34,158 bases of DNA from a virus (taxonomy: Duplodnaviria > Heunggongvirae > Uroviricota > Caudoviricetes). The notes under the pieces are model-generated. The model did not search any database. It saw nothing but the letters and a program-made list of their open reading frames with translations, and was not told the DNA's origin. This document shows positions 11,154 through 34,158 of the stretch, in pieces. The translations under genes were made by a program, and so were the position numbers. Position 1 is the stretch's first letter. Each line of letters opens with the position of its first letter. The stretch lies in IMG/VR virus record IMGVR_UViG_2660238346_000030. One strand, 5' to 3'.

Positions 11154-11173
11154 TTTTATTCAGGGTGATTTAT

Positions 11174-16199: not shown

Positions 16200-16217
16200 T
16201 GTATCAGTGCTGATACA
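16200..16217 (-). promoter_or_regulatory. Putative late-promoter activator site (TGT-N12-ACA) upstream of V
   Basis: TGTATCAGTGCTGATACA, perfect dyad, in the 68-bp S-V intergenic gap. Confidence 0.5.
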
Positions 16218-16221
16218 AAGA

Positions 16222-17990: not shown

Positions 17991-17991
17991 T

Positions 17992-18700: not shown

Positions 18701-18703
18701 AAT

Positions 18704-18907
18704 TCAGTCCCATAGCTGGACGGTCTGCACGGTGGTGGTTGTCGGAATGTCCGGCAGCTCCACCTGCAGCCCGTGAGGTAAAAAGGGGCCATATTCGGCA
18801 AGCCCCGGATTTGCCTTCAGTACCTGCTCCGTGACACCCTGCGTGCGCCCGTAATGACGCCAGCAAAGCGCGTCCACCGTGTCATACTGATGCGCACGCA
18901 CTTTCAT
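18704..18907 (-). CDS. X: Tail protein gpX
   Basis: 67 aa, same length and position as P2 gpX between L and the holin. Confidence 0.75.
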   Translation of the reverse strand: MKVRAHQYDTVDALCWRHYGRTQGVTEQVLKANPGLAEYGPFLPHGLQVELPDIPTTTTVQTVQLWD

Positions 18908-19371
18908 CAGATAAGCTCCACTGTGCAGTGCGGCGCGTCCTGTACCCGGCTGATGGCCCAGCGGGCGTCACGCCATAAATCACCGCTGGCTTCCGCCAGT
19001 TCCTCGCCCCGCTTCACACCGGATGCCGTGGCGTCATAGTCCTGGTAACGTTCGTTGAGCATGGCGCGTGCCCAGCAGTAAACCGCGTTGAAATAGTGCT
19101 GAATGCGCTCACTTTTGCCGTCCAGCTGTTCCGCCGGAACCTCTGCCAGCGAGGCATACCCCAGCATCTGCTGGCGTCTGCGAAACTCATACAGCTCTGC
19201 GTTGACCTCCGAAATTGCCGACAGCGCAACCTGCTTTAAACGCGGCTGCGTCACCGTGCCGTCAGTGCGCATGACACTGCGAAACTCCGACAGGTCCACA
19301 TCAGGCCAGAACGGCGTATTTCTGATGATTTCCGCCTGTTCCGGTGCCTGTTCTGGCGCAACAAACTTCAT
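18907..19371 (-). CDS. L: Head completion protein gpL
   Basis: Start at ATG 19371 with AGGAGA RBS (ORF track extends to 19434); synteny O-N-M-L. Confidence 0.78.
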   Translation of the reverse strand: MKFVAPEQAPEQAEIIRNTPFWPDVDLSEFRSVMRTDGTVTQPRLKQVALSAISEVNAELYEFRRRQQMLGYASLAEVPAEQLDGKSERIQHYFNAVYCWARAMLNERYQDYDATASGVKRGEELAEASGDLWRDARWAISRVQDAPHCTVELI

Positions 19372-19466
19372 GCTGCTTTCTCCTGAAATAGAGGGCGGTG
19401 GACGGGGTTTTGATGTGGCAGTGCCTTTCGCCACCCCGTGCCGCCCGTGCGCGGGGGCACGTTCTG

Positions 19467-20117
19467 TCAGCGGCTGTCATTGCGCAGTCTGCGCTCCAGC
19501 TGCTGTTTGTCTTTTTTCACGCCACAGCGGGGATCGAGCTGTAACGCATGGTTGAGATGATTAAGGGCAGACGCCGGATTGCTTTCACTCAGGACCGCGC
19601 CAATCGCTTTATGCAGACGCGCCCGTGACTGGTCCGGCATATCCAGACCGTCTGTCAGCTCCAGCGTCTGCAGCAACAGATCGGCATCAAAGCCGGTGGT
19701 GGCAAGCATTGCGCTCTGCGCGGCGTCTGCCATTTCCTCTGCCAGCACGGTCTGCACGTTGCGGTTACCCAGCGGCATCACCCAGCCATGACGCAGGGCA
19801 TGACGCCCGATCTCCAGCGCTCCGGCATAATCTCCAGCATCAATGCGCCACAGCATCACGTACATCAGCACGTCATCCTGTTGAGCGCCTCCGGCAGCCA
19901 GGACACCCTCTGCCCAGGCGGCGTACTTCGGCAGCAGCTCCACCTTGATTTCCGCTTTTTTGACCGTGGACTGAACGCCCTTGAGACGGCGGCGGTCTTC
20001 CGCCAGTTGCAGCAGCATCAGGTCATAGCCCGATGCGTGGCGAACACTGCCGCCCTCGCGGGCGGCCTGTTCAGCCTGAACGCGCAGGCGATGCTGCCGT
20101 GCGGGACTCAGGCTCAT
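19467..20117 (-). CDS. M: Terminase small/endonuclease subunit gpM
   Basis: 216 aa, synteny after major capsid gene. Confidence 0.8.
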   Translation of the reverse strand: MSLSPARQHRLRVQAEQAAREGGSVRHASGYDLMLLQLAEDRRRLKGVQSTVKKAEIKVELLPKYAAWAEGVLAAGGAQQDDVLMYVMLWRIDAGDYAGALEIGRHALRHGWVMPLGNRNVQTVLAEEMADAAQSAMLATTGFDADLLLQTLELTDGLDMPDQSRARLHKAIGAVLSESNPASALNHLNHALQLDPRCGVKKDKQQLERRLRNDSR

Positions 20118-20120
20118 GGA

Positions 20121-21179
20121 TTACGCTCCGGTTTCGGCTGCGGCGGCGCTGAAATCACCAATCTGGATGTTTTCCACCAGTGCGGCGCAGCGGTAGTCCT
20201 CAACCACATAGGCTTCGTTAACGGATTCAAAGTTTTCAATCCGGTCACGTTTCGGGTTGTCGATAACTGAACGGCGGCGGGTGTCTTCCTGCCAGTAGAT
20301 GGACAGGTTATCCAGACGGGTGATCAGCAGCGCATTCGGCGGGAAGAACGGCGCACGCACGGCCTGCAGGCCACCCATGCGTTTCTGACTGATGATCATA
20401 TCGGCAGCCAGTTTTTCACTGTTTTCCTGCTCTTTGTTGACCAGCGGGAAATACTTGTCAGACAGCAGTTCACGACCGCAAATCACCACCAGATCGTCAT
20501 CGTCCTGATAGACCACGTCGATAAGCTCATTAACGGCATCCATCACCACGGCGTCCAGGTTGGCATATTCGCCACCTTTCCCGACTTTCACCGCACCCGG
20601 TGTGGTTTCACCGCCCGTGGTGGTGCTGCCCATGACGTGATCCGGTGCATCCTCACGGATTTTCTGCAGCCAGCCTTTATTCACATCCTGCAGTAACGGG
20701 TTTTCGCTACGGTTGGAGGTTTTCGCACGCTTCACGCCGTTAAAGCCGATCATGATGCGGTCCAGTGCCTGACGTTTCACGATGGCGTCACGGATACGCA
20801 CCTGAAAATCCTGAAACTTCGCCCACAGGTCCAGCTTCGCGTAGGTCAGTACCGTGTCAAAGTTGGTCTGCTCGCATTTATATTCCACATCGACCATCAG
20901 CGTCGGATCGACAGGTTCACGCTCTTTCGCGGTGGTATCAGTGGTTCCGGCAATGGTGCTGCCAACTCCCAACCCCAGCAGCTGACCGGACTGCTCAGTC
21001 ACTGGCGTGACGTTAATCAGCGTCAGGAAAGCGGCGGATTGCTGGATCTGGTCTTCCAATGTCTGCTGCACGGACGGCTCTACGGTGAACTTGCTGGACA
21101 GTTCTTCAACTGCCACACCGTTCAGACGCGCCAGTTGCTGCAGGTAAGCGTTAAAAGCAAAGCGGGTATTCTTCTTCAT
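20121..21179 (-). CDS. N: Major capsid protein gpN
   Basis: 352 aa, P2 gpN-like. Confidence 0.88.
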   Translation of the reverse strand: MKKNTRFAFNAYLQQLARLNGVAVEELSSKFTVEPSVQQTLEDQIQQSAAFLTLINVTPVTEQSGQLLGLGVGSTIAGTTDTTAKEREPVDPTLMVDVEYKCEQTNFDTVLTYAKLDLWAKFQDFQVRIRDAIVKRQALDRIMIGFNGVKRAKTSNRSENPLLQDVNKGWLQKIREDAPDHVMGSTTTGGETTPGAVKVGKGGEYANLDAVVMDAVNELIDVVYQDDDDLVVICGRELLSDKYFPLVNKEQENSEKLAADMIISQKRMGGLQAVRAPFFPPNALLITRLDNLSIYWQEDTRRRSVIDNPKRDRIENFESVNEAYVVEDYRCAALVENIQIGDFSAAAAETGA

Positions 21180-21195
21180 CAGGTTTTGTGCTCCA

Positions 21196-22029
21196 TCAGC
21201 AATTGGTCAGAGTGTCAGCGGGGGCGTTACCGCCTGTTGCACGCTGGCGGTAGTCCTGGCGGCTGTCTTCTTGGCTCAGCTTGTCCACCAGTTCGTTAAA
21301 GGCGGTCTGCTGTGCCTGCAGGGCAGTCTCCAGCTCAGACAGGCGTTCTTCCTGCTCAGACAGGGATTTTTCGGTGCGCGCACTCAGGTTCTGCTGCTCA
21401 GTGGCGACCAGTTCCACGGCCTTATGCACATCAGAGAACCGGGCGTCATCGGACTGCTCTTTTTTGGTGAACAGCGCCGTGACACGGGCAAACAGGGACG
21501 GTTTGTCATCCTGGATTTCTTCCAGTTCGATCACCGTTTCCTCTGCAGCGGTAAAAAGATTGGCGGGATTCTGCTTGCGGTTTGCCAGCGGGTTATGGGC
21601 TGCACTGGCGCTGAATGTCAGCATTTCAGTGCCCAGACTGGCAGGGTCATCAGTGGCAGCCAGGCCGACCAGGTAGGCTTTGCCCGTATCAGCGAACTTC
21701 GGGCTGACTTCCATAGAGGTGAATAATTTCTGGCCTTTTTTCACCAGCTCCACCAGGGACTCCGTGGGCTCAACGTCGGCATACAGCGCCATCTTGCCTG
21801 CCAGCGGACCTTCCGTGATTTCTTCAGCAAACAGCGCCGTCACTTTGCCGTAGCGGTTAAAGGTGCTGTCCGGCAGATAAGACTTGATGTGCTCAAGGTT
21901 AATCAGCGCGGTGTAAACCGCCGGGTTGTAGCTGGCTGCCATCTGTTCCAGCCATTCACGCTGGATTTCGCGTCCGTCGGTGGTGGCACCTTCCACCCCG
22001 ATGCGAAAACGCTTTGCTTTCACTGTCAT
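21196..22029 (-). CDS. O: Capsid scaffolding protein gpO
   Basis: 277 aa, acidic coiled-coil C-terminal part; divergent from P. Confidence 0.82.
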   Translation of the reverse strand: MTVKAKRFRIGVEGATTDGREIQREWLEQMAASYNPAVYTALINLEHIKSYLPDSTFNRYGKVTALFAEEITEGPLAGKMALYADVEPTESLVELVKKGQKLFTSMEVSPKFADTGKAYLVGLAATDDPASLGTEMLTFSASAAHNPLANRKQNPANLFTAAEETVIELEEIQDDKPSLFARVTALFTKKEQSDDARFSDVHKAVELVATEQQNLSARTEKSLSEQEERLSELETALQAQQTAFNELVDKLSQEDSRQDYRQRATGGNAPADTLTNC

Positions 22030-22107
22030 GAGCCGTGCTCCGTTAGAAAAAACTTACTGGAGCCTTATGGTTGCGGTGATGGGGGCAGTGAAACAATGCG
22101 CGGTATT

Positions 22108-22125
22108 TGTACCGACAACCACACA
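22108..22125. promoter_or_regulatory. Putative late-promoter activator site (TGT-N12-ACA) in the divergent P/O intergenic region
   Basis: TGTACCGACAACCACACA, 47 bp upstream of the P start; shares TGTACCG...CACACA with the FI site. Confidence 0.5.
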
Positions 22126-22171
22126 AACCGCAGGCGGGGAAAGCCTTCATTCAAGGCTGTAGGTTTGTGCC

Positions 22172-23938
22172 ATGAACACCACACTGACACCCGCAGATCT
22201 CGATCCCCGTCGGCAGGCCATGCTGCTGTACTTTCAGGGATACCGCGTAGCCCGCATTGCTGAAATGCTGGGCGAGAAAGTTGCAACCGTTCACAGCTGG
22301 AAAAAACGCGACAAGTGGGGTGACTATGGGCCGCTGGATCAGATGCAGCTCACCACCGCCGCACGCTACTGCCAGCTCATTATGAAGGAGCACAAAGAAG
22401 GGAAAGATTTCAAAGAAATTGACCTGCTGGCGCGCCAGTCGGAACGCCACGCGCGGATCGGCAAGTTTAACAATGGCGGCAACGAAGCCGACTTAAACCC
22501 TAACGTCGCCAACCGTAACAAAGGCCCGCGCCGTCAGCCGGAAAAGAATGTTTTCACCGATGAACAAATTGAGAAGCTGGAAGAAATTTTCCATTCCTCC
22601 ATGTTTAACTACCAGCGCCACTGGTGGGAAGCCGGAAAAACCAACCGCATCCGCAACCTGCTAAAGTCACGCCAGATCGGCGCGACCTTCTATTTTGCCC
22701 GTGAGGCCCTGATTGACGCCCTGCTTACCGGACGTAACCAGATTTTCCTTTCTGCCAGTAAGGCACAGGCTCACGTCTTTAAGCAGTACATCATCGATTT
22801 CGCCAATGAAGTCGAGGTGGAGCTGAAAGGTGATCCGATGGTGCTTCCTAACGGGGCCACGCTTTACTTCCTCGGCACCAATGCCCGCACGGCCCAGAGT
22901 TACCACGGCAACCTGTATCTGGATGAATATTTCTGGATACCGAAATTCCAGGAGCTGCGCAAAGTGGCTTCCGGTATGGCTATTCACAAAAAATGGCGAC
23001 AGACCTATTTTTCCACGCCATCCAGCCTGACACACAGTGCTTATCCGTTCTGGTCCGGTGCGCTGTTCAACCGAGGGCGCAACAAAGCCGATAAGGTGGA
23101 CATCGACCTGTCCCACAGCAATCTGGCCCCCGGCCTGCTGTGCGCAGACGGGCAGTACCGCCAGATAGTCACTGTGGAAGATGCGGTGCGCGGCGGATGT
23201 AACCTGTTCGACCTTGACCAGTTGCGCATGGAGTACAGCCCGGACGAATACCAGAATCTGCTGATGTGTGAGTTCGTGGACGATCTCGCGTCCGTATTCC
23301 CGCTCAGCGAGCTGCAGGCGTGCATGGTAGACAGCTGGGAAGTCTGGACCGACTTTCATGCACTGGCGCTGCGCCCGTTTGGCTGGCGCGAAGTGTGGAT
23401 CGGTTATGACCCGGCAAAAGGTACGCAGAACGGCGACAGCGCCGGATGCGTGGTGGTGGCACCGCCAGCCGTGCCAGGTGGTAAGTTCCGCATTCTTGAG
23501 CGTCACCAGTGGCGCGGAATGGACTTCCGCGCCCAGGCTGATGCCATTAAAAAACTGACGCAGCAGTACAACGTGACATATATCGGCATCGACTCGACCG
23601 GCGTTGGTCACGGTGTCTACGAGAACGTGAAAGCGTTCTTTCCTGCGGTGCGGGAGTTTGTCTACAACCCCAACGTCAAAAACGCACTGGTGCTCAAGGC
23701 ATACGACATTATCAGCCACCGCCGTCTGGAGTTTGACGCCGGGCACACCGACATTGCGCAATCCTTTATGGCTATCCGTCGCGCCACTACAGCCAGCGGC
23801 AACCGCCCTACCTATGAAGCCAGCCGCAGCGAAGAAGCCAGCCACGCAGATTTGGCCTGGGCAACGATGCACGCACTGTTTAACGAACCGCTGCAGGGCG
23901 AAGCCGCCAATACCAGCAACATTGTGGAGATTTTCTGA
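22172..23938 (+). CDS. P: Terminase large subunit (ATPase-nuclease) gpP
   Basis: 588 aa; ATPase core (KSRQIGATF, LYLDEY) and C-terminal nuclease-like region; divergent from O as in P2. Confidence 0.9.
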   Translation: MNTTLTPADLDPRRQAMLLYFQGYRVARIAEMLGEKVATVHSWKKRDKWGDYGPLDQMQLTTAARYCQLIMKEHKEGKDFKEIDLLARQSERHARIGKFNNGGNEADLNPNVANRNKGPRRQPEKNVFTDEQIEKLEEIFHSSMFNYQRHWWEAGKTNRIRNLLKSRQIGATFYFAREALIDALLTGRNQIFLSASKAQAHVFKQYIIDFANEVEVELKGDPMVLPNGATLYFLGTNARTAQSYHGNLYLDEYFWIPKFQELRKVASGMAIHKKWRQTYFSTPSSLTHSAYPFWSGALFNRGRNKADKVDIDLSHSNLAPGLLCADGQYRQIVTVEDAVRGGCNLFDLDQLRMEYSPDEYQNLLMCEFVDDLASVFPLSELQACMVDSWEVWTDFHALALRPFGWREVWIGYDPAKGTQNGDSAGCVVVAPPAVPGGKFRILERHQWRGMDFRAQADAIKKLTQQYNVTYIGIDSTGVGHGVYENVKAFFPAVREFVYNPNVKNALVLKAYDIISHRRLEFDAGHTDIAQSFMAIRRATTASGNRPTYEASRSEEASHADLAWATMHALFNEPLQGEAANTSNIVEIF

Positions 23939-24663
23939 TGCACTCAACCCCAACTAACCTCATGACCACCGCCAGCCTGCCTGTAGATCGCCCTTTCTTT
24001 GCTTACCAGCATGAATGGAACAGTGGCGCACGCAGCAGAAACCGCGTGCTTACAAAAATGCGTCAGGCTGGCGCGGATTTCTTTTTCGCCTACGAAGCCC
24101 TGAACGATGCACTGCACACCGGACGCAACCAGATTTTTCTGGGCTGCACCCCGGCATCAGCCCTGACCGTCAAAACCTATATATCAGCTTTTTTAAGTGA
24201 GGCAGCAGCCTGGACGCATCTTGGGAAAATAAAATCAGGTAAAGCGCATCTGGAACTCCCAAACGGTGCGGTCATTTATTTTATCGGGCCGGAAAGTCTC
24301 GCCGCCGCGCTCCATGGAAACGTCTACGTGTCAGAGTATGCCTGGGCTGACTCCCCCAAAAATATGATTGCGCTCGCCAAAAGCCTGTCCATGCACGCGC
24401 GCTATCACGCTACCTACTACACCACCCCAAGCCCCAGCCCGGAAGCATGGCAGGAATACAAGAATCTGATCGCCCGCAACAGCACTACCTGCATGACCTT
24501 TACCGCTGATGACGCTGCAGCATCCGGGGCTACGCTCGCAACCGGAGCCGCGCTCTTTGATGATGAATGGCTGAATGACATGAAAAAAGAATTATCACCG
24601 GAGGACTGGAAAATGCTGTTTATGTGCGAATGGCCCCAGGCTGACAAGGAGCAGGCGGCATGA
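23938..24663 (+). CDS. Truncated paralog of the terminase large-subunit ATPase core, translationally coupled between P and Q
   Basis: 241 aa; aligns with the P ATPase core by eye (KMRQAGADFFFAYEALNDALHTGRNQIFL vs KSRQIGATFYFAREALIDALLTGRNQIFL; HGNVYVSEYAW vs HGNLYLDEYFW; LFMCEW vs LLMCEF); start overlaps P stop, stop overlaps Q start. Confidence 0.7.
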   Translation: MHSTPTNLMTTASLPVDRPFFAYQHEWNSGARSRNRVLTKMRQAGADFFFAYEALNDALHTGRNQIFLGCTPASALTVKTYISAFLSEAAAWTHLGKIKSGKAHLELPNGAVIYFIGPESLAAALHGNVYVSEYAWADSPKNMIALAKSLSMHARYHATYYTTPSPSPEAWQEYKNLIARNSTTCMTFTADDAAASGATLATGAALFDDEWLNDMKKELSPEDWKMLFMCEWPQADKEQAA

Positions 24664-25715
24664 GCAAACGTAAAAACAAGAACAACCGCGCAGCGGTGGA
24701 TCACAACGCAGAATCTGGCGGCGCTGCGGCAGAGGCGTTTAGCTTTGGCGACCCGGTGCCGGTGTTAGACCGACGCGAATTGCTGGACTACGTGGAATGC
24801 GTGCAGATGGACCGCTGGTATGAGCCGCCGGTGAGCTTTGACGGACTGGCGCGGACCTATCGCGCCGCCGTGCATCACAGCTCACCGATTGCCGTTAAGC
24901 GTGACATTCTCAGCAGTACCTACATCCCGCACCGCCTGCTCAGCCAGCAGGCTTTTGCCCGTTTCGTACAGGACTATCTGGTGTTCGGTAACGCCTATCT
25001 GGAAAAGCGCACCAACCGGCTCGGCGGCGTTCTCTCACTGGAGCCAGCACTGGCGAAGTACACACGCCGTGGCGTGGACCTCGACACCTACTGGTTTGTG
25101 CAGTATGGCCTGACCACGCAGCCCTATGAATTTACGCAGGGCAACATCTTTCATCTGCTGGAGCCGGATATTAACCAGGAGATTTACGGGCTGCCCGGCT
25201 ATCTCTCCGCCATCCCGTCAACCCTGCTCAACGAGTCCGCAACGCTGTTCCGCCGGAAGTATTACATCAACGGCAGCCATGCGGGTTTCATCATGTACAT
25301 GACCGACGCAGCACAGAATCAGGAGGACGTGAACAATATCCGCCAGGCAATGAAAAGCGCCAAAGGGCCGGGCAACTTCCGTAACCTGTTTATGTACTCA
25401 CCCAACGGTAAAAAGGACGGCATCCAGATCATCCCGTTATCGGAGGTTGCGGCAAAGGATGAGTTTCTGAACATCAAGAACGTGAGCCGCGATGACATGA
25501 TGGCAGCGCACCGCGTACCGCCGCAGATGATGGGCATTATTCCCAACAATACCGGCGGCTTTGGTGATGTGGAAAAGGCCAGCCGCGTCTTTGTCCGCAA
25601 CGAGCTGATGCCGCTGCAGAAGCGACTGCAGGAGCTTAACGACTGGCTTGGAGAAGAAGTGATCCGCTTTGAGCCGTACACGCTGGGACTGACAGAAGAC
25701 AAGCGCAACGACTGA
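24660..25715 (+). CDS. Q: Portal protein gpQ
   Basis: 351 aa, last gene of the packaging operon next to the putative cos region. Confidence 0.88.
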   Translation: MSKRKNKNNRAAVDHNAESGGAAAEAFSFGDPVPVLDRRELLDYVECVQMDRWYEPPVSFDGLARTYRAAVHHSSPIAVKRDILSSTYIPHRLLSQQAFARFVQDYLVFGNAYLEKRTNRLGGVLSLEPALAKYTRRGVDLDTYWFVQYGLTTQPYEFTQGNIFHLLEPDINQEIYGLPGYLSAIPSTLLNESATLFRRKYYINGSHAGFIMYMTDAAQNQEDVNNIRQAMKSAKGPGNFRNLFMYSPNGKKDGIQIIPLSEVAAKDEFLNIKNVSRDDMMAAHRVPPQMMGIIPNNTGGFGDVEKASRVFVRNELMPLQKRLQELNDWLGEEVIRFEPYTLGLTEDKRND

Positions 25716-25750
25716 CCCACCGCACCACGACAACAAGACTACCCCTCACA

Positions 25751-25787
25751 GCGCCCCAGCAGCATTCTGCGGGGCGCTTCTTTTTTT
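25751..25787 (+). terminator. Rho-independent terminator after Q
   Basis: GCGCCCC (25751-25757) / GGGGCGC (25771-25777) stem followed by TTCTTTTTTT. Confidence 0.65.
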
Positions 25788-25869
25788 CTGCCGCTCCCCC
25801 ACCCTCACCAATTGAAGCCGCCAGCGTGCCGGAGATTGCGCCGGATTTTCACCATTTCACCCCGTTGCG

Positions 25870-25888
25870 CGCGCTCGTATCCCCGCTA
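25870..25888. other. Putative cos (cohesive end) site
   Basis: Minus strand reads GGCGTAGCGGGGATACGAG, resembling the 19-nt cohesive ends of P2/186 as I recall them (GGCG.GGCGGGGAAAGCA.); located about 160 bp beyond Q. Confidence 0.3.
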
Positions 25889-25935
25889 CGCCTGCCCGCT
25901 TTATGTAGTGGTTTTCATGCACCTGCATGATCTAC

Positions 25936-25961
25936 GCAAAAGCCCGCCAGTTCTGGCGGGC
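25936..25961 (-). terminator. Putative terminator for the minus-strand SOS operon
   Basis: Stem GCCCGCCAG / CTGGCGGGC with 2-nt loop, followed on the minus strand by TTTTG. Confidence 0.4.
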
Positions 25962-26096
25962 CTTAGCAAAAACGATCCTCAAACGATCATGCGATCTCAT
26001 GCGGCATAGACATGCACTACAGAGCTAACGCCTCGCAAGGGCTCGTTGTTCAACCTTGCTGACGCCAGAAGCAAGTTCAGACGCCAGCAACGTTTC

Positions 26097-26330
26097 TTAA
26101 TGCAGCCAGCTGTCGTCTTCCCACACCTTCTGCATAATTTTCATCACTTGTTTTCTTTCTTCGTCCAGTTGCAGTCCGGTTAGTTCCACACCGTTAGAGC
26201 TACCTTTGCGAATGCGAATTACCGTTTTGGGATACAGGGGGCGCAGATTGCGGTAAAGCTCGGATTCAAGGGCGTCCAGGGTAGACTGGCTAATCTTCTG
26301 CTCTTTATCGATCATTATTTCAATGCGCAT
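26097..26330 (-). CDS. DinI-family protein
   Basis: 78 aa from ATG 26330 with GAGGTGA RBS (ORF track extends to 26402); similar by eye to E. coli DinI (MRIEIMIDK...LDALESEL...KIMQKVWEDDSW); operon preceded by a LexA box. Confidence 0.8.
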   Translation of the reverse strand: MRIEIMIDKEQKISQSTLDALESELYRNLRPLYPKTVIRIRKGSSNGVELTGLQLDEERKQVMKIMQKVWEDDSWLH

Positions 26331-26340
26331 AAAAGTCACC

Positions 26341-26529
26341 TCAGCTGATGACATCCATTGAGCGGTTGTATTCGTGGGTTCTGATTTTTGCCATGAGTTC
26401 ATCAGTCAATTCAGAAACCCACTGCAGAGCCAGCCCCTTCTCTTCATCACTACACTCACTAGCCGCTACAAGCTTAAGAAAAAAATCAATGCGCTGGAGC
26501 TTCAAAGACTCCAAAAAATAGTCCTGCAT
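26341..26529 (-). CDS. Small SOS-inducible protein, candidate antirepressor (Tum/GfoA-like by position)
   Basis: 62 aa from ATG 26529 with AGGAGG RBS (ORF track extends to 26631); first gene of the LexA-boxed operon, 10 nt upstream of the dinI-like gene. Confidence 0.5.
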   Translation of the reverse strand: MQDYFLESLKLQRIDFFLKLVAASECSDEEKGLALQWVSELTDELMAKIRTHEYNRSMDVIS

Positions 26530-26570
26530 CTTTCCTCCTATGACACCACACGCAATACTATATGTATAAC

Positions 26571-26590
26571 CACTGTTTATATTTACAGTA
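26571..26590 (-). promoter_or_regulatory. LexA box (SOS operator) overlapping the promoter of the small-ORF/dinI-like operon
   Basis: CACTGTTTATATTTACAGTA, i.e. CTGT-N8-ACAG with AT-rich spacer, 40-60 bp upstream of the start codon at 26529. Confidence 0.78.
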
Positions 26591-26682
26591 TATAATAATC
26601 TTACTGATGTAAAACGTTTTTTTACGTTCATCAGCCTGATATGCCTGGTATTATTAATAGCACGAATTGTTAACCCGCGTAA

Positions 26683-29097
26683 TTAATACAGGTTCCGCCA
26701 CTGATCATCTTCCTGCAAACGCTGGTTCCGATAGAAGATACGCAGGCCTGCTCCTGACGGAATACTGCCGCCGCGAAGGAGCAAATTGACCTCTTTCTCG
26801 CTGCCATCAAATCCTCTGGACTTCAGTTCATAGACGAGCTGCTGACGCTGATACTCTGTAATTCGCTGTTTGTAGTCTTTACGCCGTTTCGGTTTAACCA
26901 GGCGTAATCTTGCTGCCAGTTCCCGGCGCTCTTTTTTGCTCATACTGTGCAGGTAATCGTGCAACTCCTTGTCATCCATGCGGGTGATATCCGTTCTGGT
27001 ATCCCCATCAGCTGATTTGTCTTTCCCTTGTTGGTTCAAATTTTCAGCAAGGGGACAGTTATTGCCACGAGTCCAAGGGGCGCAAGCGCCCTGGTCGGCT
27101 GCCGCCTCCTGAACGTCAACGGCCTTACGAACCATTTTCCACTTCACTGCATGAGTGCAGATCTTACCCTCTGCAATGGGTGACCAGATGCCATAAATAC
27201 GAATGCCGTGATCGCCATAGGCGGTCGGCTCTTCGTTGATTTCATAAGCGGTTCTGATGAGGTGATATTTACGGGGAACCAGTACGCCGCCCTGCTTCAT
27301 GATGTAGGTGGCAAAACAACCAGCATCAGCTGCAGCCAGAATGGCATCAAGGCGCGGGTTATCCAGTACCGGCGCACCTGCTTTTTTGTCACCCTGTTGC
27401 CTTGCCGCCTGACCAGCCAGCAATCGCAGTTCACGGTAAGCCTGACGCCCCGGAATGCCAAAGAAGCGGAATTGCTGAACACGATGCAGAGACGCCCAGG
27501 CATTAACGTATTCAGCGTTATCACGCAGAGATTTACCCGTTTCCTTGCTGATCTCGCCAGCCAGACCACGCCCGTCAATGTTCTTACTGATGTATTTCGC
27601 GATGTAGCTAGTCGGCGTTCCTTTGCGCGGGTTTATCAGCTCAGACTTAAAGCGTGGCCCCGTGTTATTACCCAGCTCCTCGCGGTCTTCACGGATAGCA
27701 AACTTACGCAACAATGCAGTAATGGCGCGGCGGTCTTTTTTGCGCATGAAACACAACAGGTGCCAGTGAACTGTGCCGTCATGATGCGGCTCAGCCACCC
27801 GCACGCCATACCAGCGCAATCCGGCTTTGTGCATCGCCTTACGAAATGCAGCAAACATGCCGACCAGATAATCACTGCTTTGTCTTACCGTCGCATTTGT
27901 CCAGGTCGGGTTGGGCCTGCCGTTATTTAGCGTGGAATGGAAACGTGACGGACAGGTGATGGTGTAGAAAACGGCGCAGTCACCGCGCATTTCCGCGATA
28001 AGCTCCAGACCTTTAACACAGGCCATCATCTCATTGCGGCGATGCGCAGGGTTGCTGCTGCTGGCGTTTACCACATCCTCCATGTCCAGCGTGTCGCCGT
28101 CTTCGTTCACCAGTTCATGAGAACGGAAAAACTCCAGCGACTTACGGCGCTGCTCACGTTTATGCATCACGGCTTCATAGCTGACATAGGGAGATGCTTT
28201 TTTGCTGACCAGGCAAACAGCACGCAACTGCTCTTCCCGCCATTCACAACGCATCTTCCACAATTTCCGATACCACCAGTCGGCGCACAACATACGCGCC
28301 AGCGAACCCGGAATGAGTTCATAGGGTACGGGTTTACGGCGGTTTCTTTTCCGGCGGAGTTGCTCAAACGCAGGCGGTATGACATCCAGTCGCAGGGTTT
28401 CTGCTGCCACCTTTTCCCATGTCTTGCGGATTTCTTCTGGCTTAACATCATCGGTGGCATACAAATCACCACAAGCGGCATCAAGACACATACTCATATG
28501 CGCAGCGACAAGAGTAGACAGGCGTTTCACCTGATCCTGACTCATTTCAGGCAAGATCAGCAGGCCGTCCAGCCCTTCATGGCTTGCCATAAAGCGAAAA
28601 GAAGTGGATAGCTGACTGTCGCGTACATGCTCCAGTCGTTCCAGACATGGCTTAATCGTCTCACGCAAATAGCGGGAATAAGCCTTTGGCCTGCCCAGGC
28701 TGCTGAAGTATTCAATACGTTGCATCAGCGGCTTGCTGATATGGGAAGGCTGGGCGTTAACGTCCGCCAGTATGACCATGTCCGGATTAAAACGCTGCTG
28801 CTCATGCGCCAGCTTTGCCCGGCTAATGAGCTTATCCTGCTCCATTTCGCGCTGGACAGGATCACGGGATGCATTAAAGAAATAACGCTCCCAGACCTGA
28901 TCACTCAGTGCCTCGCGGCGCAGTTGTTCCTGCTCGTTATCGGCAGCGTACAGAGTGATCAGGTTTGAAAGCGCAGAAACCGGCGCAACTTCCGCCGGGT
29001 CCAGATAAGGGTTAATAGCCTTTTTCGGGCTGTTCCATGAGAATGCTGCGGCGGCCTCGTTAAAGCCGCTGCAGTTGTTCATATCAGCATGGCTCAT
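26683..29097 (-). CDS. A: Replication initiation endonuclease gpA (rolling-circle initiator)
   Basis: 804 aa, last and largest gene of the early operon, P2/186 A-like. Confidence 0.88.
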
Positions 29098-29951
29098 GCA
29101 CGCACTCCATACACGGCAGAACTATCCACGCCACGCGAAGGATCAAATCCCACCCAGCAGCGCGCCCCAGAAACAGCGATGATTTCTGTTGCAGATTTAC
29201 TCTCACCAGCTGCTACGCCGATGCTGCGTTTTGCCTTGATGTAGTGGTGAGTAAAATTGCGATACAGCGAACGGATCAGGGATGTGTCACTGTTAGAAAC
29301 AATGACCGGATGTCCTTCTGATGACCGATGTTCAAGAACGGATGCCAGGTGATACTGGTCATCTTCAGTGAAACCATCAGTGTGATAGCCGGAAAACGTA
29401 CCGTCATACGGCGGATCGCAATACACCACATCCCCCGCCTTCAACATCGCCAGCGTTTCATCAAAGCTGGCGCAGATAAACGTTGCCCGCTGGGCTTTCT
29501 CTGCAAATGCGCGAATTTCTTTTTCAGGGAAATACGGATTTTTATAATTACCGTAGGGAATGTTGAAATACCCGCTCTTGTTATAGCGACATAACCCACG
29601 GTAACCATGACGATTGAGATACAGAAAATATATCGCTTTCATGAAATCAGTAATTTCAGTGGAGTAATTAAACTCCTGCCTTATGTTGTAATAAGCCACC
29701 TCCCTGTTTGCTTCCTCAAATAAAGCTCTGGCACGAGATATAAACGCCTCACAATCAGCAGCAACCTTTTTATAGAGGTTGATTAAATCAGGATTAATAT
29801 CCGCAACAAGATAGCTGGGGTAATCCGTCTCCATCATCACAGCACAGGAACCCGCGAAAGGTTCAACCAGTCGCGGGCCAGCAGGAAGGTGTTTTTTCAG
29901 TTCGGACATAATGGCAGTTTTATTTCCCGCCCATTTCAGGATGGTGCTCAT
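29094..29951 (-). CDS. Dam-family N6-adenine DNA methyltransferase
   Basis: Start at ATG 29951 with GGAGG RBS (ORF track extends to 30011); motifs [19 protein letters not shown]; collinear with E. coli Dam; stop overlaps gene A start. Confidence 0.85.
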
Positions 29952-30175
29952 ACAGCACCTCCGTTGTAATGTTTGCCTTTCAGCTCTGCGATTTCCTGGC
30001 AGGTAATGCAAAGCTGCACTCCAGGAATGGCACGGCGGCGTGCTGGCGGAATTGCTGCTTCACACTCAATGCAAAGCACGCGGGACACGCCCGGCGTTTT
30101 GGCGCGGGCAGCACGGATATGACGCTGGCGTTCTTCTTCAACGCGCTGCTGTACGAGATCCATTGCATCAGCCAT
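29948..30175 (-). CDS. TraR/DksA-type C4 zinc-finger protein (P2 orf82-like)
   Basis: 75 aa with CIEC...17 residues...CITC; stop overlaps the methyltransferase start. Confidence 0.7.
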   Translation of the reverse strand: MADAMDLVQQRVEEERQRHIRAARAKTPGVSRVLCIECEAAIPPARRRAIPGVQLCITCQEIAELKGKHYNGGAV

Positions 30176-30408
30176 CAGTGGATCTCCTGCGCTTCGTTCT
30201 GGATTGCTTCAGCATTCACACGCAGCAGTTCTGCCGCTTCGACGTGGTTTAGCTGGCGGGATGTTATATGACACGCCAGGCTATCAAGGCGAGCTGCCAT
30301 TGCTTCAGCCCTTGCCCGGCGTTCTTCCAGACGAGCTTCTGTCAGTAAAATATTAAGCCCTGCGTCATCCGGTCCGGTTTTAGTCGAGAGGGTTTCAATA
30401 TTACGCAT
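30175..30408 (-). CDS. Hypothetical early-operon protein
   Basis: 77 aa from ATG 30408 with AGGAG RBS (ORF track starts at TTG 30414); coupled to the zinc-finger gene by a TGATG overlap. Confidence 0.5.
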   Translation of the reverse strand: MRNIETLSTKTGPDDAGLNILLTEARLEERRARAEAMAARLDSLACHITSRQLNHVEAAELLRVNAEAIQNEAQEIH

Positions 30409-30475
30409 AATCAATTCTCCTGAATTTAGATAAAGGGATGCCCGGCGGGTTTACGCCATTAATTTCATTAGTTGG

Positions 30476-30817
30476 TTAATTCGGCATGGTTAGCCGTCTG
30501 GGAAATAAGCTCACCACTGCACGAAAATGATTCATTGCTTTAATCAGCTCCCGCTTTTCGTCAGTGGTCAGCTCATTAATGCTGATGCTATGACGTTCAG
30601 CTGGAATTTTTGCCATAAAGAATATGGCAGCCAGTGCCCGTTTATTTTGTTCATTATTGATATCCCGTGGATCACGCATATCTTTAATAAACCGCTCAAG
30701 CTCTGACTCAATATTCAGGCCAAAAACTTTCGCCCTTAACTCCGCAATGTGATTAAGTCCATTCAGGCGTTCACCGGGGCTTAATGGAACAGTTGCTGCA
30801 GCGCCATTAATTGCCAT
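30476..30817 (-). CDS. Hypothetical early-operon protein
   Basis: 113-aa ORF, ATG start, in operon orientation. Confidence 0.5.
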   Translation of the reverse strand: MAINGAAATVPLSPGERLNGLNHIAELRAKVFGLNIESELERFIKDMRDPRDINNEQNKRALAAIFFMAKIPAERHSISINELTTDEKRELIKAMNHFRAVVSLFPRRLTMPN

Positions 30818-30839
30818 ACTTCATATCCCCCAAACGCAG

Positions 30840-31064
30840 CTATCGTTCTTTGTTCTTACGGTAACGCTCAAGAGGAGATACATTTTTTCGTATCGTCTCT
30901 TTAACCTGCTCTCCCCGTAAAAATGTCCCATCCTTTAACGCGAAAAAGTAACTGCCATCGCCCGACAATGACGGATAGCAACAGAGCAAATCATCTTCAG
31001 GTACTGAATAACTCTCCCCTCTGTAACGAAACTGATAAACCACTTCACTTTCTGCCGCATACAT
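30840..31064 (-). CDS. Hypothetical early-operon protein
   Basis: 74-aa ORF, ATG start with GGAG 9 nt upstream. Confidence 0.45.
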   Translation of the reverse strand: MYAAESEVVYQFRYRGESYSVPEDDLLCCYPSLSGDGSYFFALKDGTFLRGEQVKETIRKNVSPLERYRKNKER

Positions 31065-31231
31065 TTGGACTTTCTCCGTTTCCTCGTGGTCAATTTAGAC
31101 AGCAATTCATCTTGTGAATGACATGGATGCCAGCGTTTTCCATCCTCACCCGTGATCCAGCCGTGACCGTAGTGCATTGCCGGGCTTTGTTTTACCAGCA
31201 GCGATGCAAATGATGGTTCTTTCGTCAGCAT
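30935..31231 (-). CDS. Hypothetical early-operon protein overlapping the previous ORF in another frame
   Basis: ATG at 31231 with GAGGTG RBS overlapping the cII stop; C-terminal 130 nt overlap the 74-aa ORF so the true end is uncertain. Confidence 0.3.
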   Translation of the reverse strand: MLTKEPSFASLLVKQSPAMHYGHGWITGEDGKRWHPCHSQDELLSKLTTRKRRKSKCMRQKVKWFISFVTEGRVIQYLKMICSVAIRHCRAMAVTFSR

Positions 31232-31238
31232 AAGCACC

Positions 31239-31748
31239 TCACAGCAAACCGAATGAAGCACCGAGGCCAGTCACGGTATCAACTGCACTCGCCATCGCAG
31301 GGTTAGCCTGTAAACGGGCCTGCAATGAAACAGCAGCCAACGCCATCAGTCGTGTTACAGAGTTAATGCTGCTGATAGCATCACGACGACCTGCACTGGT
31401 TTTTACATCGCCAGATACCGCACCTGCAGCAACACGCCCGATCTCTGCGGTTGCACTCATGACGTAATGTGGCAGTTTCTCTTTTGCCACCTCATTAATT
31501 GGTACGCATGGCAGGCAGTGAATCTGTGCCAGAAAACCATCTACCAACGTTGAATCTTCAGTCAGATCGGTAAGCAGCCAGATTTCTGGTGCGGTTAATA
31601 AATGAGGTTGAGCTGGGTTCAGCTTGTTCCGCAGAATCTGCACATTCATGCCCGCACGTTCTGCCAGTTGCACCAGATTGTGGCGCAGTGCGAATGCACG
31701 ACAGGCTTCATCAAAATGTGGATGTTTGGAAACTTGGTAATCAAACAT
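31239..31748 (-). CDS. cII: 186-type CII transcriptional activator of lysogeny establishment
   Basis: 169 aa from ATG 31748 (ORF track starts at TTG 31757); closely resembles 186 CII as I recall it; second gene of the lytic operon. Confidence 0.78.
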
Positions 31749-31812
31749 GGTTTTCAACTCCGAACTTATCGCAAAATCGAACTCAGCGTCTTATTGCGAA
31801 AATAGACGTCTA

Positions 31813-32016
31813 TTAAGCAGACAAAGCATCAACAGTCAGAGCAGCCAGGTTAATCATTACCTTTTCACGTTTTTTGTCTTTACGAAGACGATGACGAGGT
31901 AGTCGGCCATCAGCCAACATGTCGTTAATCGTATCAATAGAAAGGCCAGTCAGTTCGCTATAACGTTCGATTGTGACATGTGGTGTATTCAGAGTAATTG
32001 AAATGTTAGGTGTCAT
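31813..32016 (-). CDS. Apl/Cox-like excisionase and early-promoter repressor (small HTH protein)
   Basis: 67 aa with HTH ([24 protein letters not shown]); first gene of the early lytic operon, divergent from cI. Confidence 0.65.
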
Positions 32017-32161
32017 AAGGCAACATTCCTTCTAGATATGGCTTGTGGCGAGCCGTTGTTTGTCGTGATTAGTAGTGAAGGCTCCAAAAGAACACTTCTG
32101 GTTCAACTTTAAGATCGCTTTTGGAATCTGTCAACGAATTTTGGATTTCTTTGGAGGACTT

Positions 32162-32731
32162 GTGGATTTCAATAGCGGCGGTAAGAAAGCCATAGAACGT
32201 TTAGTTGAAGCATATGGGTTCGGTACCCGTCAGGCTCTCTGTGATCATTTAGGTGTTTCTAAGAGCACCATGGCAACGCGCTATATGCGTGATATTTTTC
32301 CAGCAGATTGGGTAATCCAGTGCGCCCTTGAAACGGGCACCTCGCTTAATTGGCTAACAACAGGGCATGGTTCAAAGCAAGCATCAGCAAATACAAATAC
32401 TATAGAAGTAGAAAAATATTTATTGTCTGATGGAGCATTGCAGAAAGACGGTTTTTATATTTTTGATAAGGGATTTCTACCCTCTGCGTTTAAAAAACCT
32501 TTTGTCATCACAGATAACAATTCTGAATTTATTTGTGATAAAGAATTTGATGATATACGTGATGGTAAATGGGTAATAAGTATTGATGGCGAAATAACGA
32601 TCCGTGACATTACTCGTTTACCCGGTGGAAGAATCTTCGTCGAGGGTGGAAACAGAGCCTTCGAATGCAAGATAGAAGACATTGAAATAATTGGTAAAAT
32701 TATAAGTTTAACAGTCAAGTATGTTAAATAG
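32162..32731 (+). CDS. cI: 186-type CI immunity repressor
   Basis: N-terminal HTH domain (LGVSKSTMATRYMRDIFPADWVIQCALETGTSLNWLTTGHG) plus C-terminal domain; start set at GTG 32162 preceded by GGAGG (ORF track starts at GTG 32075). Confidence 0.75.
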   Translation: MDFNSGGKKAIERLVEAYGFGTRQALCDHLGVSKSTMATRYMRDIFPADWVIQCALETGTSLNWLTTGHGSKQASANTNTIEVEKYLLSDGALQKDGFYIFDKGFLPSAFKKPFVITDNNSEFICDKEFDDIRDGKWVISIDGEITIRDITRLPGGRIFVEGGNRAFECKIEDIEIIGKIISLTVKYVK

Positions 32732-32746
32732 TACCGGGAGGAAACT

Positions 32747-32938
32747 ATGCTTGGTAAGGTATTTTTTGTGGTTTTGTCATGTTCTTTGTTATTAAACCCA
32801 CTAACTACCTATGCTAGAAATTATCCCTGCTCAGGGAAAAAGGGAGGTGTTTCTCACTGTACCTCAGATGGCAAATTCGTTTGCAATGATGGAACTATTA
32901 GTAAATCCAAAAAAATCTGTACTAAAAACTCACGATAA
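32747..32938 (+). CDS. Small secreted Cys-rich basic peptide, cotranscribed with cI and int (lysogeny-expressed moron candidate)
   Basis: 63 aa; GGGAGG RBS 6 nt upstream; Sec-type signal peptide [23 protein letters not shown] followed by a 40-aa Lys-rich mature part with four Cys. Confidence 0.55.
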
Positions 32939-33126
32939 CTTTTGCTTTTATATCTGCGTCTAAAATAAAAATGAGCCGCAGGTTAACCGCAAAAGTTACA
33001 TGCTCACATAGCAAAAAGAATAGCCAACTTCATTATGGCTTCAGTGAGATGTATGGTCGTAGGATTTCATACATTGACACTGGTTATACATACAGTAAAA
33101 ATGCTCTCTACTGGAGGGCATTTTTT

Positions 33127-34158
33127 ATGGCAGTACGAAAACTCACCACAGGGAAATGGCTTTGCGAATGTTACCCCGCCGGACGTAGTGGGCGTCGTGT
33201 GCGTAAACAATTCGCCACCAAAGGCGAAGCTCTGGCTTTTGAGCGCCACACGATGGAAGAAACCGAAGCAAAGCCCTGGCTGGGTGAATCAGTGGATCGT
33301 CGAACACTGAAAGACGTAGTTGAGCTATGGTTCAAACTACATGGTAAATCTCTAACCGCTGGGCAGCATGTCTATGACAAATTGCTGTTGATGGTTGACG
33401 CTCTGGGCAATCCCCTTGCAACCGATCTCACATCTAAAATGTTTGCCCACTATCGAGATAAACGCCTGACGGGTGAGATCTACTTCAGCGAGAAATGGAA
33501 AAAAGGAGCAAGCCCAGTCACTATTAACCTGGAGCAAAGCTATCTTAGTAGTGTTTTTAGCGAACTATCCCGCCTGGGCGAATGGTCGTATCCGAACCCA
33601 CTGGAGAACATGCGAAAATTCACCATCGCAGAAAAAGAGATGGCATGGCTTACCCATGAACAGATTGTTGAATTGCTGGCTGATTGTAAACGTCAGGACC
33701 CAATTCTGGCACTGGTAGTTAAGATATGCTTAAGCACTGGCGCACGCTGGCGTGAAGCCGTAAATCTTACCCGCTCACAGGTGACCAAATACCGAATTAC
33801 CTTTGTAAGAACGAAGGGGAAGAAAAACAGAAGCATCCCTATCAGTAAAGAGCTTTACGAAGAGATCATGGCGCTTGATGGGTTCAATTTCTTCACAGAC
33901 TGCTATTTTCAATTTTTATCCGTGATGGAAAAAACGTCTATCGTGCTCCCTCGCGGTCAACTGACACACGTTCTGCGCCATACGTTTGCGGCGCATTTTA
34001 TGATGTCGGGTGGAAATATCCTTGCTTTGCAAAAAATCCTCGGACATCACGACATAAAAATGACTATGCGTTACGCACATCTGGCACCGGATCACCTGGA
34101 AACTGCATTACGGTTTAATCCGCTGGCAACACTACCAACATCAATAGCAAGTTTTTGA
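33127..34158 (+). CDS. int: Tyrosine integrase (P2/186 Int family)
   Basis: Start at ATG 33127 with GGAGGG RBS (ORF track extends to 32971); C-terminal catalytic motifs (TGARWREA, HVLRHTFA, MRYAHL with catalytic Tyr); stop codon is the last 3 nt of the window. Confidence 0.9.
   Translation: MAVRKLTTGKWLCECYPAGRSGRRVRKQFATKGEALAFERHTMEETEAKPWLGESVDRRTLKDVVELWFKLHGKSLTAGQHVYDKLLLMVDALGNPLATDLTSKMFAHYRDKRLTGEIYFSEKWKKGASPVTINLEQSYLSSVFSELSRLGEWSYPNPLENMRKFTIAEKEMAWLTHEQIVELLADCKRQDPILALVVKICLSTGARWREAVNLTRSQVTKYRITFVRTKGKKNRSIPISKELYEEIMALDGFNFFTDCYFQFLSVMEKTSIVLPRGQLTHVLRHTFAAHFMMSGGNILALQKILGHHDIKMTMRYAHLAPDHLETALRFNPLATLPTSIASF

Follow-up and report, generated by a model that had tools for sequence, protein, structure and literature searches.

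Gene organization of the locus

The window, by which we mean the whole stretch of 34,158 nucleotides that was analyzed, begins in the E. coli chromosomal genes grxA/ybjM/ybjL, and we therefore agree with the sequence-only reading that the host can be expected to have a Dam of its own. A prophage is integrated beside ybjL, and its integrase gene is cut off by the end of the window. Profiles for replication and switch functions (PF05840 and PF06892, respectively) were matched, the cos arm can be aligned with those of P2 and 186, and the prophage shows 95% identity to the Klebsiella phages KP12 and 4LV2017 over 81–84% of 25 kb. The block around dam shares 97.4% DNA identity with RE-2010, and a prophage of E. 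coli F829 is 100% identical to the window over 1.4 kb. By its sequence the element is a P2-like prophage of E. coli (Peduoviridae, Felsduovirus/Elveevirus type). The features discussed below are collected in Table 1.

Table 1. Position and assignment of features in the window
Feature	Position	Strand	Remarks
P2/186-like (Felsduovirus/Elveevirus-type) prophage	2700..34158		106 GATC sites; left boundary approximate
pR-like early lytic promoter TTGACA-17-TAAAGT	32106..32134	minus	upstream of apl homologue; likely source of dam transcript
DUF2732 gene (P2 orf80 / 186 orf79 homologue)	30175..30414	minus	PF10809 2.2e-29
TraR/DksA-type C4 zinc-finger gene (P2 orf82 homologue)	29948..30175	minus	PF01258 1.2e-10; TIGR02419 1.2e-17; PHROG 54
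dam Shine-Dalgarno sequence GGAGG	29958..29962	minus	6 nt 5' of ATG, within 3' end of zinc-finger gene
dam	29094..29951	minus	285-aa orphan Dam-family (D12 class, alpha architecture) N6-adenine DNA methyltransferase, by profile matches
Replication gene A (rolling-circle initiator/nickase)	26683..29097	minus	PF05840 1.4e-127
Probable ori (nick region) inside gene A	27055..27095	minus	aligned to annotated P2 nick site

The gene order apl-cII-fil-...-A agrees with that of phage 186. As had been proposed from the sequence, dam belongs to the early lytic operon, lying downstream of the pR-like promoter and of the apl/cII homologues. Between pR and dam, the dam strand showed no promoter-like site. 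The mechanical open reading frame extends from a TTG at 30011 to 29094 and would encode 305 aa, whereas the ATG at 29951 yields the 285-aa product. In the alignment this ATG falls at residue 7 of E. coli Dam, and it is also the start in RefSeq and phage records. The 285-aa frame of the earlier reading proved real. A restriction endonuclease gene adjoining dam was found neither here, where both neighbors were identified as the TraR-type zinc-finger gene and gene A, nor in the relatives examined.

The gene product is a Dam-family methyltransferase

Assignment of the product to the Dam-family N6-adenine methyltransferases, already made from its motifs, is confirmed by profile and structure-database matches. 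The protein covers the whole PF02086 profile (positions 1–253 of 253) with an E-value of 3.9e-77 and 259.8 bits at a cut-off of 22, and matches TIGR00571 (2e-96, 322.8 bits, cut-off 114.85), PHROG 56 DNA methyltransferase (7e-123) and E. coli Dam in the PDB (2e-73). Residues 4–260 are collinear with residues 7–267 of the 278 residues of E. coli Dam at 46% identity, which bears out the collinearity claimed before. Both motifs named by the sequence-only reading are present: FAGSCAV at residues 32–38 and the catalytic motif IV, D179-P-P-Y182, which aligns to D181-PPY of E. coli Dam. The motif order is of the alpha type, with motif I at residues 32–36, the recognition loop at about 114–136 and DPPY at 179.

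E. coli chromosomal Dam (PDB 2G1P) shares the D12 fold family, the collinear arrangement, DPPY and six contact residues with the phage enzyme, but it is located in the host dam operon instead of a phage lytic operon and its motif I reads FVGAG. In the phage protein this motif is F-A-G-S-C, i.e. the second glycine of FxGxG is replaced, and FAGSCAV is also kept in the MLG42 allele, which is 74% identical. Recognition of GATC by E. coli Dam involves residues K9, Y119, N120, L122, R124, P134 and Y138 (PMC4417163). Six of these seven are retained in the phage protein as K6, Y117, L120, R122, P132 and Y136, and the sole change is N120 to R118 in the recognition loop. GATC-specific methylation would be the expected activity, although the N120 to R118 exchange together with the FAGSC motif I means that specificity may be altered or relaxed relative to E. 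coli Dam. Purifying selection acts on the gene, with dN/dS of 0.15–0.16 against the RE-2010, SopEPhi and MLG42 alleles. Since the protein reaches 288.8 bits against NF008152, the NCBIfam equivalog of chromosomal Dam, and thereby stays under its cut-off of 441, we assign dam to a phage lineage and not to a copy of the host gene.

Overlapping genes and coupling to gene A

The stop/start overlaps reported on both sides of dam are correct, each junction reading ATGA. At the upstream junction the TGA of the zinc-finger gene occupies 29950–29948 and the ATG of dam 29951–29949; at the downstream junction the TGA of dam occupies 29096–29094 and the ATG of gene A 29097–29095, the latter being preceded by GGAG 7 nt upstream (29105–29108). 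The first link of the chain is the DUF2732 gene, which overlaps the start of the zinc-finger gene by 1 nt.

From these overlaps a chain of coupled genes had been proposed. The overlaps themselves stand, and dependence of translation along the chain is suggested by them, by a predicted hairpin at the dam Shine-Dalgarno sequence and by the annotation of 186, in which A appears to be translated only when orf84 is translated to its end. The predicted hairpin pairs the Shine-Dalgarno sequence with dam codons 2–4 and scores z = -2.9 (151 nt) and -2.4 (61 nt) against shuffled sequences. Conserved RNA hairpins that enforce coupling were rejected as an explanation: in a fold comparison MLG42 and ev015 did not share the Shine-Dalgarno hairpin, and a hairpin at the gene A start codon, with the 3' end of dam as its 5' arm, is weak and not significant (z -0.9 and -0.2).

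A coupling to A would not be peculiar to Dam. Phage 186 orf84 and P2 orf83, which lie directly upstream of A, resemble dam in position and in the 4-nt stop/start overlap with A, but their proteins (PAPS-reductase-like and DUF5405, respectively) are unrelated to Dam. In P2, 186 and ENT90 the position of dam is filled by other genes or by none while the overlap pattern is unchanged. Because unrelated proteins occur with the same overlap, coupling to A looks like a property of the genome position rather than of Dam.

Distribution and known relatives

The gene is an ordinary, previously annotated Dam-type gene of a very common P2/186-like E. coli prophage, and as such already known. The three-gene block of zinc finger, dam and A has been annotated before, in Fels-2, SopEPhi, RE-2010, Cartapus and Klebsiella phages, and about a quarter of the complete E. 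coli genomes (1244 of 5426) contain it. The exact protein was found on 159 contigs, and 4038 members make up its 90% cluster; the source of one member calls it 'retron EC67 DNA adenine methylase'. The Ec67 element was described in 1990 under a title that states a Dam methylase function (Hsu, Inouye and Inouye; PMC55184). The Dam of the retron-Ec67 prophage, Fels-2 STM2730, SopEPhi orf8, RE-2010 gp10 and Cartapus gp42 belong to the same 285-aa family and are 74–98% identical; in Fels-2, SopEPhi, RE-2010 and Cartapus dam likewise sits between a TraR-type zinc finger and gene A with 4-nt overlaps. We see no substantial difference from the retron-Ec67-type Dam, of which the window dam is an allele. 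A literature search for STM2730 yielded nothing specific.

Other phage-borne GATC adenine methylases of Dam-positive hosts are the Dam enzymes of T2/T4, P1, HP1 and VT-2/933W (listed in PMC7556043). T4 Dam is detectable as a homologue (PDB 1YFJ, 1.4e-17) but very distant, with about 22% identity (tblastn).

GATC content is linked to Dam carriage

We compared observed GATC counts with the expectation from dinucleotide shuffles. Among Dam-carrying phages, the prophage part of the window holds 106 sites (101.9 +/- 9.1 expected) and Fels-2 116 (110 +/- 11), while two phages of other genera are enriched, ESSI2_ev015 with 117 (86 +/- 7) and phiT5282H with 158 (117 +/- 9). RE-2010, SopEPhi, 4LV2017 and Cartapus contain 3.2–3.6 GATC per kb. 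In contrast, the Dam-less phages P2, 186 and PSP3 retain only 25 (122 +/- 11 expected), 14 (110 +/- 10) and 25 sites (108 +/- 9), PSP3 serving as a Dam-less control since dam is absent from its record. Densities are similarly low in WPhi (0.84 per kb), L-413C (0.73) and YenM_201.16 (1.1), all Dam-less, whereas Dam-less ENT90 is just mildly depleted (66 vs 85 +/- 8). No other of the 256 tetranucleotides is as depleted in P2 as GATC, whose observed/expected ratio is 0.20 there and 0.75–0.80 in Dam-carrying relatives; other palindromes show no such difference. Gene A alone carries 9 GATC in the window and 1 in P2. GATC content is linked to Dam carriage among P2-like phages, in a contrast that draws on a small number of independent lineages: some three groups with Dam and four genera without it.

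Possible roles of the phage enzyme

Host Dam has been reported to under-methylate phage DNA, and MutH to counter-select GATC in enterobacteriophages (PMC5014478; PMC4687349); on high-copy DNA endogenous Dam is limiting (bioRxiv 10.1101/2020.06.22.160242, preprint). Against this background the GATC contrast favors self-methylation during rolling-circle replication. We propose that the gene encodes an active GATC-specific orphan Dam, made only in lytic growth together with A, which keeps the phage's GATC sites methylated; taken as a whole we hold this explanation to be fairly probable. Lying inside the CI-repressed early lytic operon, dam should be silent in the lysogen, and upon induction or infection the pR-like promoter would drive its transcription. 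Being last but one in the overlapping chain of DUF2732, TraR zinc finger, Dam and A, Dam would be produced along with the rolling-circle initiator. Host Dam is presumably scarce and outpaced by fast-replicating, high-copy phage DNA, so the additional enzyme would keep the roughly 106 phage sites methylated. Methylated sites would avoid incision by MutH and possibly binding by SeqA or, in the next host, restriction by methylation-sensitive enzymes, costs that the Dam-less relatives would evade through purging GATC. A methylating role in lytic growth had also been suggested by the sequence-only reading, and it now has comparative support, which comes solely from GATC avoidance in the Dam-less relatives. 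As to causal direction, Dam may relax the GATC purge or GATC-rich phages may need Dam, and the correlation leaves the relevant cost of an unmethylated site unspecified.

The same contrast agrees with an anti-restriction function, in which Dam would pre-methylate progeny against GATC-specific methylation-sensitive nucleases (MboI/DpnII-like, or other defense) in the next host and so would broaden host range over Escherichia, Salmonella, Klebsiella and Yersinia: avoidance of sites is an alternative anti-restriction strategy (PMC4687349). Anti-restriction is the classical role of phage orphan methylases, a retron preprint reads phage Dam in this way (bioRxiv 10.1101/2020.06.22.160242), and near-identical dam alleles are found in phages of four Enterobacterales genera. 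However, the hosts are all Dam-positive, so that nucleases cutting unmethylated GATC would be hard to maintain there, and phage DNA is already methylated in part. We consider this function unlikely, bearing in mind that it overlaps heavily with self-methylation of phage DNA and does not exclude it.

A burst of Dam could instead serve host takeover by hyper-methylating the host chromosome and altering Dam-sensitive promoters to the benefit of the phage; with sites hemimethylated for a shorter time, sequestration of oriC by SeqA would be disturbed, as would the discrimination of strands during mismatch repair. Overproduction of Dam is indeed mutagenic (PMC5014478), and the operon of relatives contains host-directed genes such as fil and dhr in 186. 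Takeover leaves the tracking of Dam carriage by phage GATC content unexplained, no sequence pointer to a host target was seen and the lytic cycle is short, which makes it quite improbable.

GATC sites at cos, ori and the early promoter

Methylation might also act as a regulatory mark on phage GATC that times cos cleavage and packaging, firing of ori or the pR/pL switch. For replication, control by methylation as suggested earlier finds no support at the P2-like ori, in which we found no GATC: the P2 nick site GCGCCTCGGAGTCCTGTCAATAACTGT aligns with GCGCCCCTTGGACTCGTGGCAATAACTGT in the window, and within about 85 bp of this P2-homologous region GATC is absent, the nearest being at 27160. At the switch, one GATC (32113–32116) lies in the spacer of the pR-like promoter, 1 nt upstream of the -10 element.

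Packaging offers a weak hint. No exact or near-exact P2 cos (at most 3 mismatches) was found in the window; by eye and alignment cos was located at 25874–25892, where it differs from P2 at 6 positions; the SEN8 record, when mapped to the window, ends at 25893. Four GATC (25929, 25974, 25985 and 25993) lie among conserved TGCAT repeats 37–105 bp from cos, and those at 25974 and 25985 recur in each of the nine Dam-carrying phages that were compared, including where the flanks have diverged. At the same place of the cos arm P2 has GAGATTGCAT and Dam-carrying phages have GAGATCGCAT. Four GATC in 70 bp are, however, not unusual under random placement (P = 0.20), the distant Dam-carrying phages ev015 and T5282H lack such a cluster in the portal-proximal intergenic region, and Dam-less relatives package via the same TGCAT-repeat arm without GATC. 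Another cluster, five GATC at 55–257, was discarded as a phage feature, as it sits in the host gene grxA.

For P1 Dam a role in packaging at pac has been demonstrated; this is a feature of P1, and for the window Dam such a role is a candidate. Taken together we regard a regulatory mark as very improbable. The specific version in which the sites at 25974 and 25985, in the right arm of cos, gate terminase as in P1 pac, so that only DNA fully methylated by phage Dam is cut and packaged, is likewise highly doubtful; if true, Dam would count among the integral packaging factors of this P2-like branch.

Least probable is lysogenic conversion, in which prophage-expressed dam would supplement or change host methylation: any leak would matter, given that the gene is present in a quarter of complete E. 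coli genomes, but dam lies within the early lytic operon amid lytic functions and no promoter-like site was detected between pR and dam on the dam strand.

Implications for P2-like phages

The dam gene itself is long known and very common, and little is left to discover about it. The new part is the comparative GATC evidence across Dam-carrying and Dam-less P2-like phages; a literature search gave nothing specific on such a comparison within this group. Overexpressed Dam, namely the enzymes of E. coli, Salmonella and phage P1, which belong to a family other than that of the window Dam, can trigger retron defense (bioRxiv 10.1101/2020.06.22.160242, preprint). With the activity predicted here, roughly one E. 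coli strain in four would carry a second, inducible GATC methylase. One phage family provides a clean natural contrast between normal or elevated GATC in Dam-carrying members and a 5- to 8-fold depletion in Dam-less ones. Why enterobacteriophages avoid GATC and what purpose phage Dam enzymes serve are both still called open in the literature, and P2-like phages represent a convenient system for addressing the two questions.

Identity of the dam gene

The putative start of dam at ATG 29951 is credible, because GGAGG precedes it with a spacing of 6 nt, the alignment places it at E. coli Dam residue 7, and RefSeq and phage records use the same codon. Pfam PF02086 aligns with the protein along its entire profile (3.9e-77); further matches are TIGR00571 'Dam family' (2e-96) and the solved structures of E. 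coli Dam (2e-73; residues 4-260 against 7-267, 46% identity). With FAGSCAV at 32-38 and DPPY at 179-182, the 285-aa Dam-family ORF and its collinearity with E. coli Dam, both proposed in the sequence-only reading, were confirmed. Of the seven residues through which E. coli Dam contacts GATC specifically (K9, Y119, N120, L122, R124, P134 and Y138; PMC4417163), six are kept in the alignment, whereas N120 has become arginine. The score stays below the NCBIfam equivalog threshold for chromosomal Dam (288.8 vs 441); the protein therefore belongs to a phage lineage of Dam rather than being copied recently from the host. A dN/dS of about 0.15 against three alleles indicates purifying selection.

The 1.4-kb block of zinc-finger gene, dam and replication gene A shares 97.4% identity with Salmonella phage RE-2010 and 96% with the Klebsiella phages 4LV2017 and KP12, which are annotated with a DksA-like zinc-finger protein, a DNA (adenine) methyltransferase and a replication nickase overlapping as in the window. 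The same arrangement is found in Fels-2, SopEPhi, Cartapus, ST11-VIM1phi8.4 and ST437-OXA245phi4.1. Among 5426 complete E. coli genomes, 1244 carry the block, including isolate F829 with 100% identity. The exact protein occurs on 159 contigs ('MULTISPECIES: DNA adenine methylase [Enterobacteriaceae]'), and its 90% cluster comprises 4038 members, one named 'retron EC67 DNA adenine methylase'. Annotators of Fels-2 and SopEPhi also linked their dam to the retron Ec67 methylase; this element was reportedly later recognised as a 186-related prophage. This dam is one allele of a phage enzyme known from 1990 onwards and occupies its customary site in a prophage that is itself very common. Yersinia phage vB_YpM_MLG42 (PP599993) carries an intact 285-aa dam at 4387-5244 on the minus strand, 74% identical to that of the window and unannotated in the record; an extra ORF (5241-5651) separates dam from the zinc-finger gene there, with a 4-nt overlap at the dam start.

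Prophage context and operon

The window opens with 2.6 kb of E. coli chromosome, not phage; what follows is a P2/186-like prophage with an integrase gene that extends past the right end. Since the left end carries grxA, ybjM and ybjL, the prophage is integrated beside ybjL. Five GATC at 55-257 fall within grxA. In E. coli F829 a related prophage borders rcdA/ybjJ on its other flank.

Features of the window
Feature	Position	Strand	Remark
grxA	1-258		E. coli chromosome
ybjM	288-665	minus	E. coli chromosome
ybjL	935-2620		E. coli chromosome
Large terminase gene	22172-23938
241-aa ORF	23938-24663		PHROG 3746, 3e-93
Portal gene	24660-25715
P2-type cos ctcgtatccccgctacgcc	25874-25892
DinI-like gene	26097-26330	minus	paired with 62-aa ORF
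62-aa ORF	26341-26529	minus	PHROG 698
LexA-box-like palindrome CTGTTTATATTTACAG	26573-26588		CTG-N10-CAG, perfect
dam ORF	ends 29094; possible starts TTG 30011 (305 aa) or ATG 29951 (285 aa)	minus
pR-like promoter TTGACA-17-TAAAGT	32134-32106		reads leftwards
63-aa ORF	32747-32938		PHROG 6000 (function not assigned)

Leftwards from the pR-like promoter follow homologues of apl, cII, fil, DUF5347, DUF2732 and the TraR/DksA zinc finger, then dam and A, an order matching that of the early lytic operon of phage 186. No promoter-like sites were found on the dam strand between pR and dam. Together with the operon position this makes it reasonable to assume that dam would be expressed only during lytic growth.

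Other features were noticed during annotation. The palindrome lies upstream of the 62-aa ORF and the DinI-like gene and resembles, together with this pair, the SOS-controlled tum module of 186/PSP3. The 241-aa ORF is a truncated paralogue of the large terminase subunit, located between large terminase and portal genes as in 186 and PSP3. The 63-aa ORF sits between the genes for the CI repressor and the integrase. Its product is hydrophobic at the N-terminus and contains several cysteines; the ORF may belong to the lysogeny-expressed accessory ('moron') genes. A GATC at 32113-32116 is situated in the spacer of the pR-like promoter, 1 nt upstream of the -10 element. P2 (NC_001895) has lost GATC across its genome, but one of the 25 that survive, at 25899-25902, overlaps the annotated O1 repressor-binding site in the early promoter Pe.

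Position of dam upstream of gene A

Both proposed junction overlaps are real: the zinc-finger stop with the dam start and the dam stop with the A start each form an ATGA. The DUF2732 gene overlaps the downstream zinc-finger gene by 1 base. The slot separating the TraR-type zinc-finger gene from A contains orf83 (DUF5405) in P2, WPhi and L-413C, orf82-83-84 in 186, orf35 in PSP3, nothing in ENT90, and Dam in the Felsduovirus/Elveevirus/Kapieceevirus/Gegevirus group. The 186 orf84 is unrelated to Dam, yet overlaps A by the identical 4 nt, and the 186 database record states that 'translation to end of orf84 appears necessary for translation of A protein'. Coupling to A therefore appears to be a property of the genome position, not of Dam. 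In two other genera, represented by ESSI2_ev015 and phiT5282H, a 44-50% identical Dam is again encoded next to the replication gene on its upstream side, with a 4-nt overlap in the former and one small ORF in between in the latter.

RNA folding predicted pairing of the dam Shine-Dalgarno sequence with dam codons 2-4 (z = -2.9 and -2.4) and a weak, non-significant hairpin at the A start codon; neither is conserved in MLG42 or ESSI2_ev015. Translational coupling of dam and A, as suggested earlier, is plausible from the overlaps, and the folding predictions may support it in part.

GATC content with and without dam

We compared GATC counts of P2-like genomes with the expectation from dinucleotide-preserving shuffles.

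GATC counts in Dam-carrying and Dam-less genomes
Genome	dam	Observed	Expected
Prophage part of window	yes	106	101.9 +/- 9.1
Fels-2	yes	116	110 +/- 11
ESSI2_ev015	yes	117	86 +/- 7
phiT5282H	yes	158	117 +/- 9
P2	no	25	122 +/- 11
186	no	14	110 +/- 10
PSP3	no	25	108 +/- 9
ENT90 (Erwinia phage)	no	66	85 +/- 8

Depletion was absent in the four Dam-carrying phages counted, but present in the Dam-less P2, 186 and PSP3 and, in mild form, in ENT90, a contrast drawn from only about three independent Dam-carrying lineages against four Dam-less genera. The Dam-carrying RE-2010, SopEPhi, 4LV2017 and Cartapus contain 3.2-3.6 GATC per kb; among Dam-less phages the values are 0.84 for WPhi, 0.73 for L-413C and 1.1 for YenM_201.16 (9-kb stretch only). 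GATC is the most depleted of all 256 tetranucleotides in P2 (O/E 0.20), with an O/E of 0.75-0.80 in Dam-carrying relatives, and 4-bp palindromes other than GATC showed no difference between them. Gene A alone contains nine GATC in the window vs one in P2. The most depleted tetranucleotide of the window is CTAG (8 observed vs 25 expected); GGCC, at 90 vs 177, is under-represented as well.

Possible roles of the enzyme

The roles listed in the sequence-only reading were reasonable, and they fared differently. For control of packaging by methylation at the cos right arm there is a weak hint: four GATC (25929, 25974, 25985, 25993) are interleaved with TGCAT repeats conserved even in P2 and 186, Fels-2 and RE-2010 share their spacing of 45/11/8, and the central pair is present throughout the nine Dam-carrying phages aligned, with no GATC at the aligned positions of the Dam-less P2, 186, PSP3 and YenM_201.16. 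However, four sites in 70 bp are not unusual at the density of the window (P = 0.20), distant Dam-carrying phages lack a comparable cluster and Dam-less phages evidently use the same arm for packaging, making this role very improbable. Beside cos, the Dam-carrying 4LV2017 (NC_047818) encodes a 'retron St85 family effector' and a polymerase gene (10905-12888), unlike the window, where no cargo is found at this position. Dam overexpression reportedly triggers retron-Sen2 (St85) through methylation of a GATC in its msDNA (preprint 10.1101/2020.06.22.160242).

Lysogenic conversion is unlikely, as the operon position of dam speaks against it. Control of replication at the origin was not supported, the P2-homologous nick region (~27075) having no GATC within 85 bp. 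For control of the switch, the GATC next to the -10 element of the pR-like promoter would be a candidate site.

Methylation upkeep during lytic growth agrees with the genome comparison. Enterobacteriophages counter-select GATC, since fast-replicating phage DNA stays under-methylated, which exposes unmethylated sites to MutH attack (PMC5014478; PMC4687349), and endogenous Dam is limiting for high-copy DNA (bioRxiv 10.1101/2020.06.22.160242). Taken with these reports, the GATC contrast best supports a self-made Dam that would keep methylation abreast of rolling-circle replication, the phage producing the enzyme together with its initiator A. The contrast would be compatible with either causal direction between dam carriage and GATC content, and would fit avoidance of MutH and anti-restriction alike. 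In P2-like phages, this relation between GATC content and dam extends the classic finding of GATC counter-selection.
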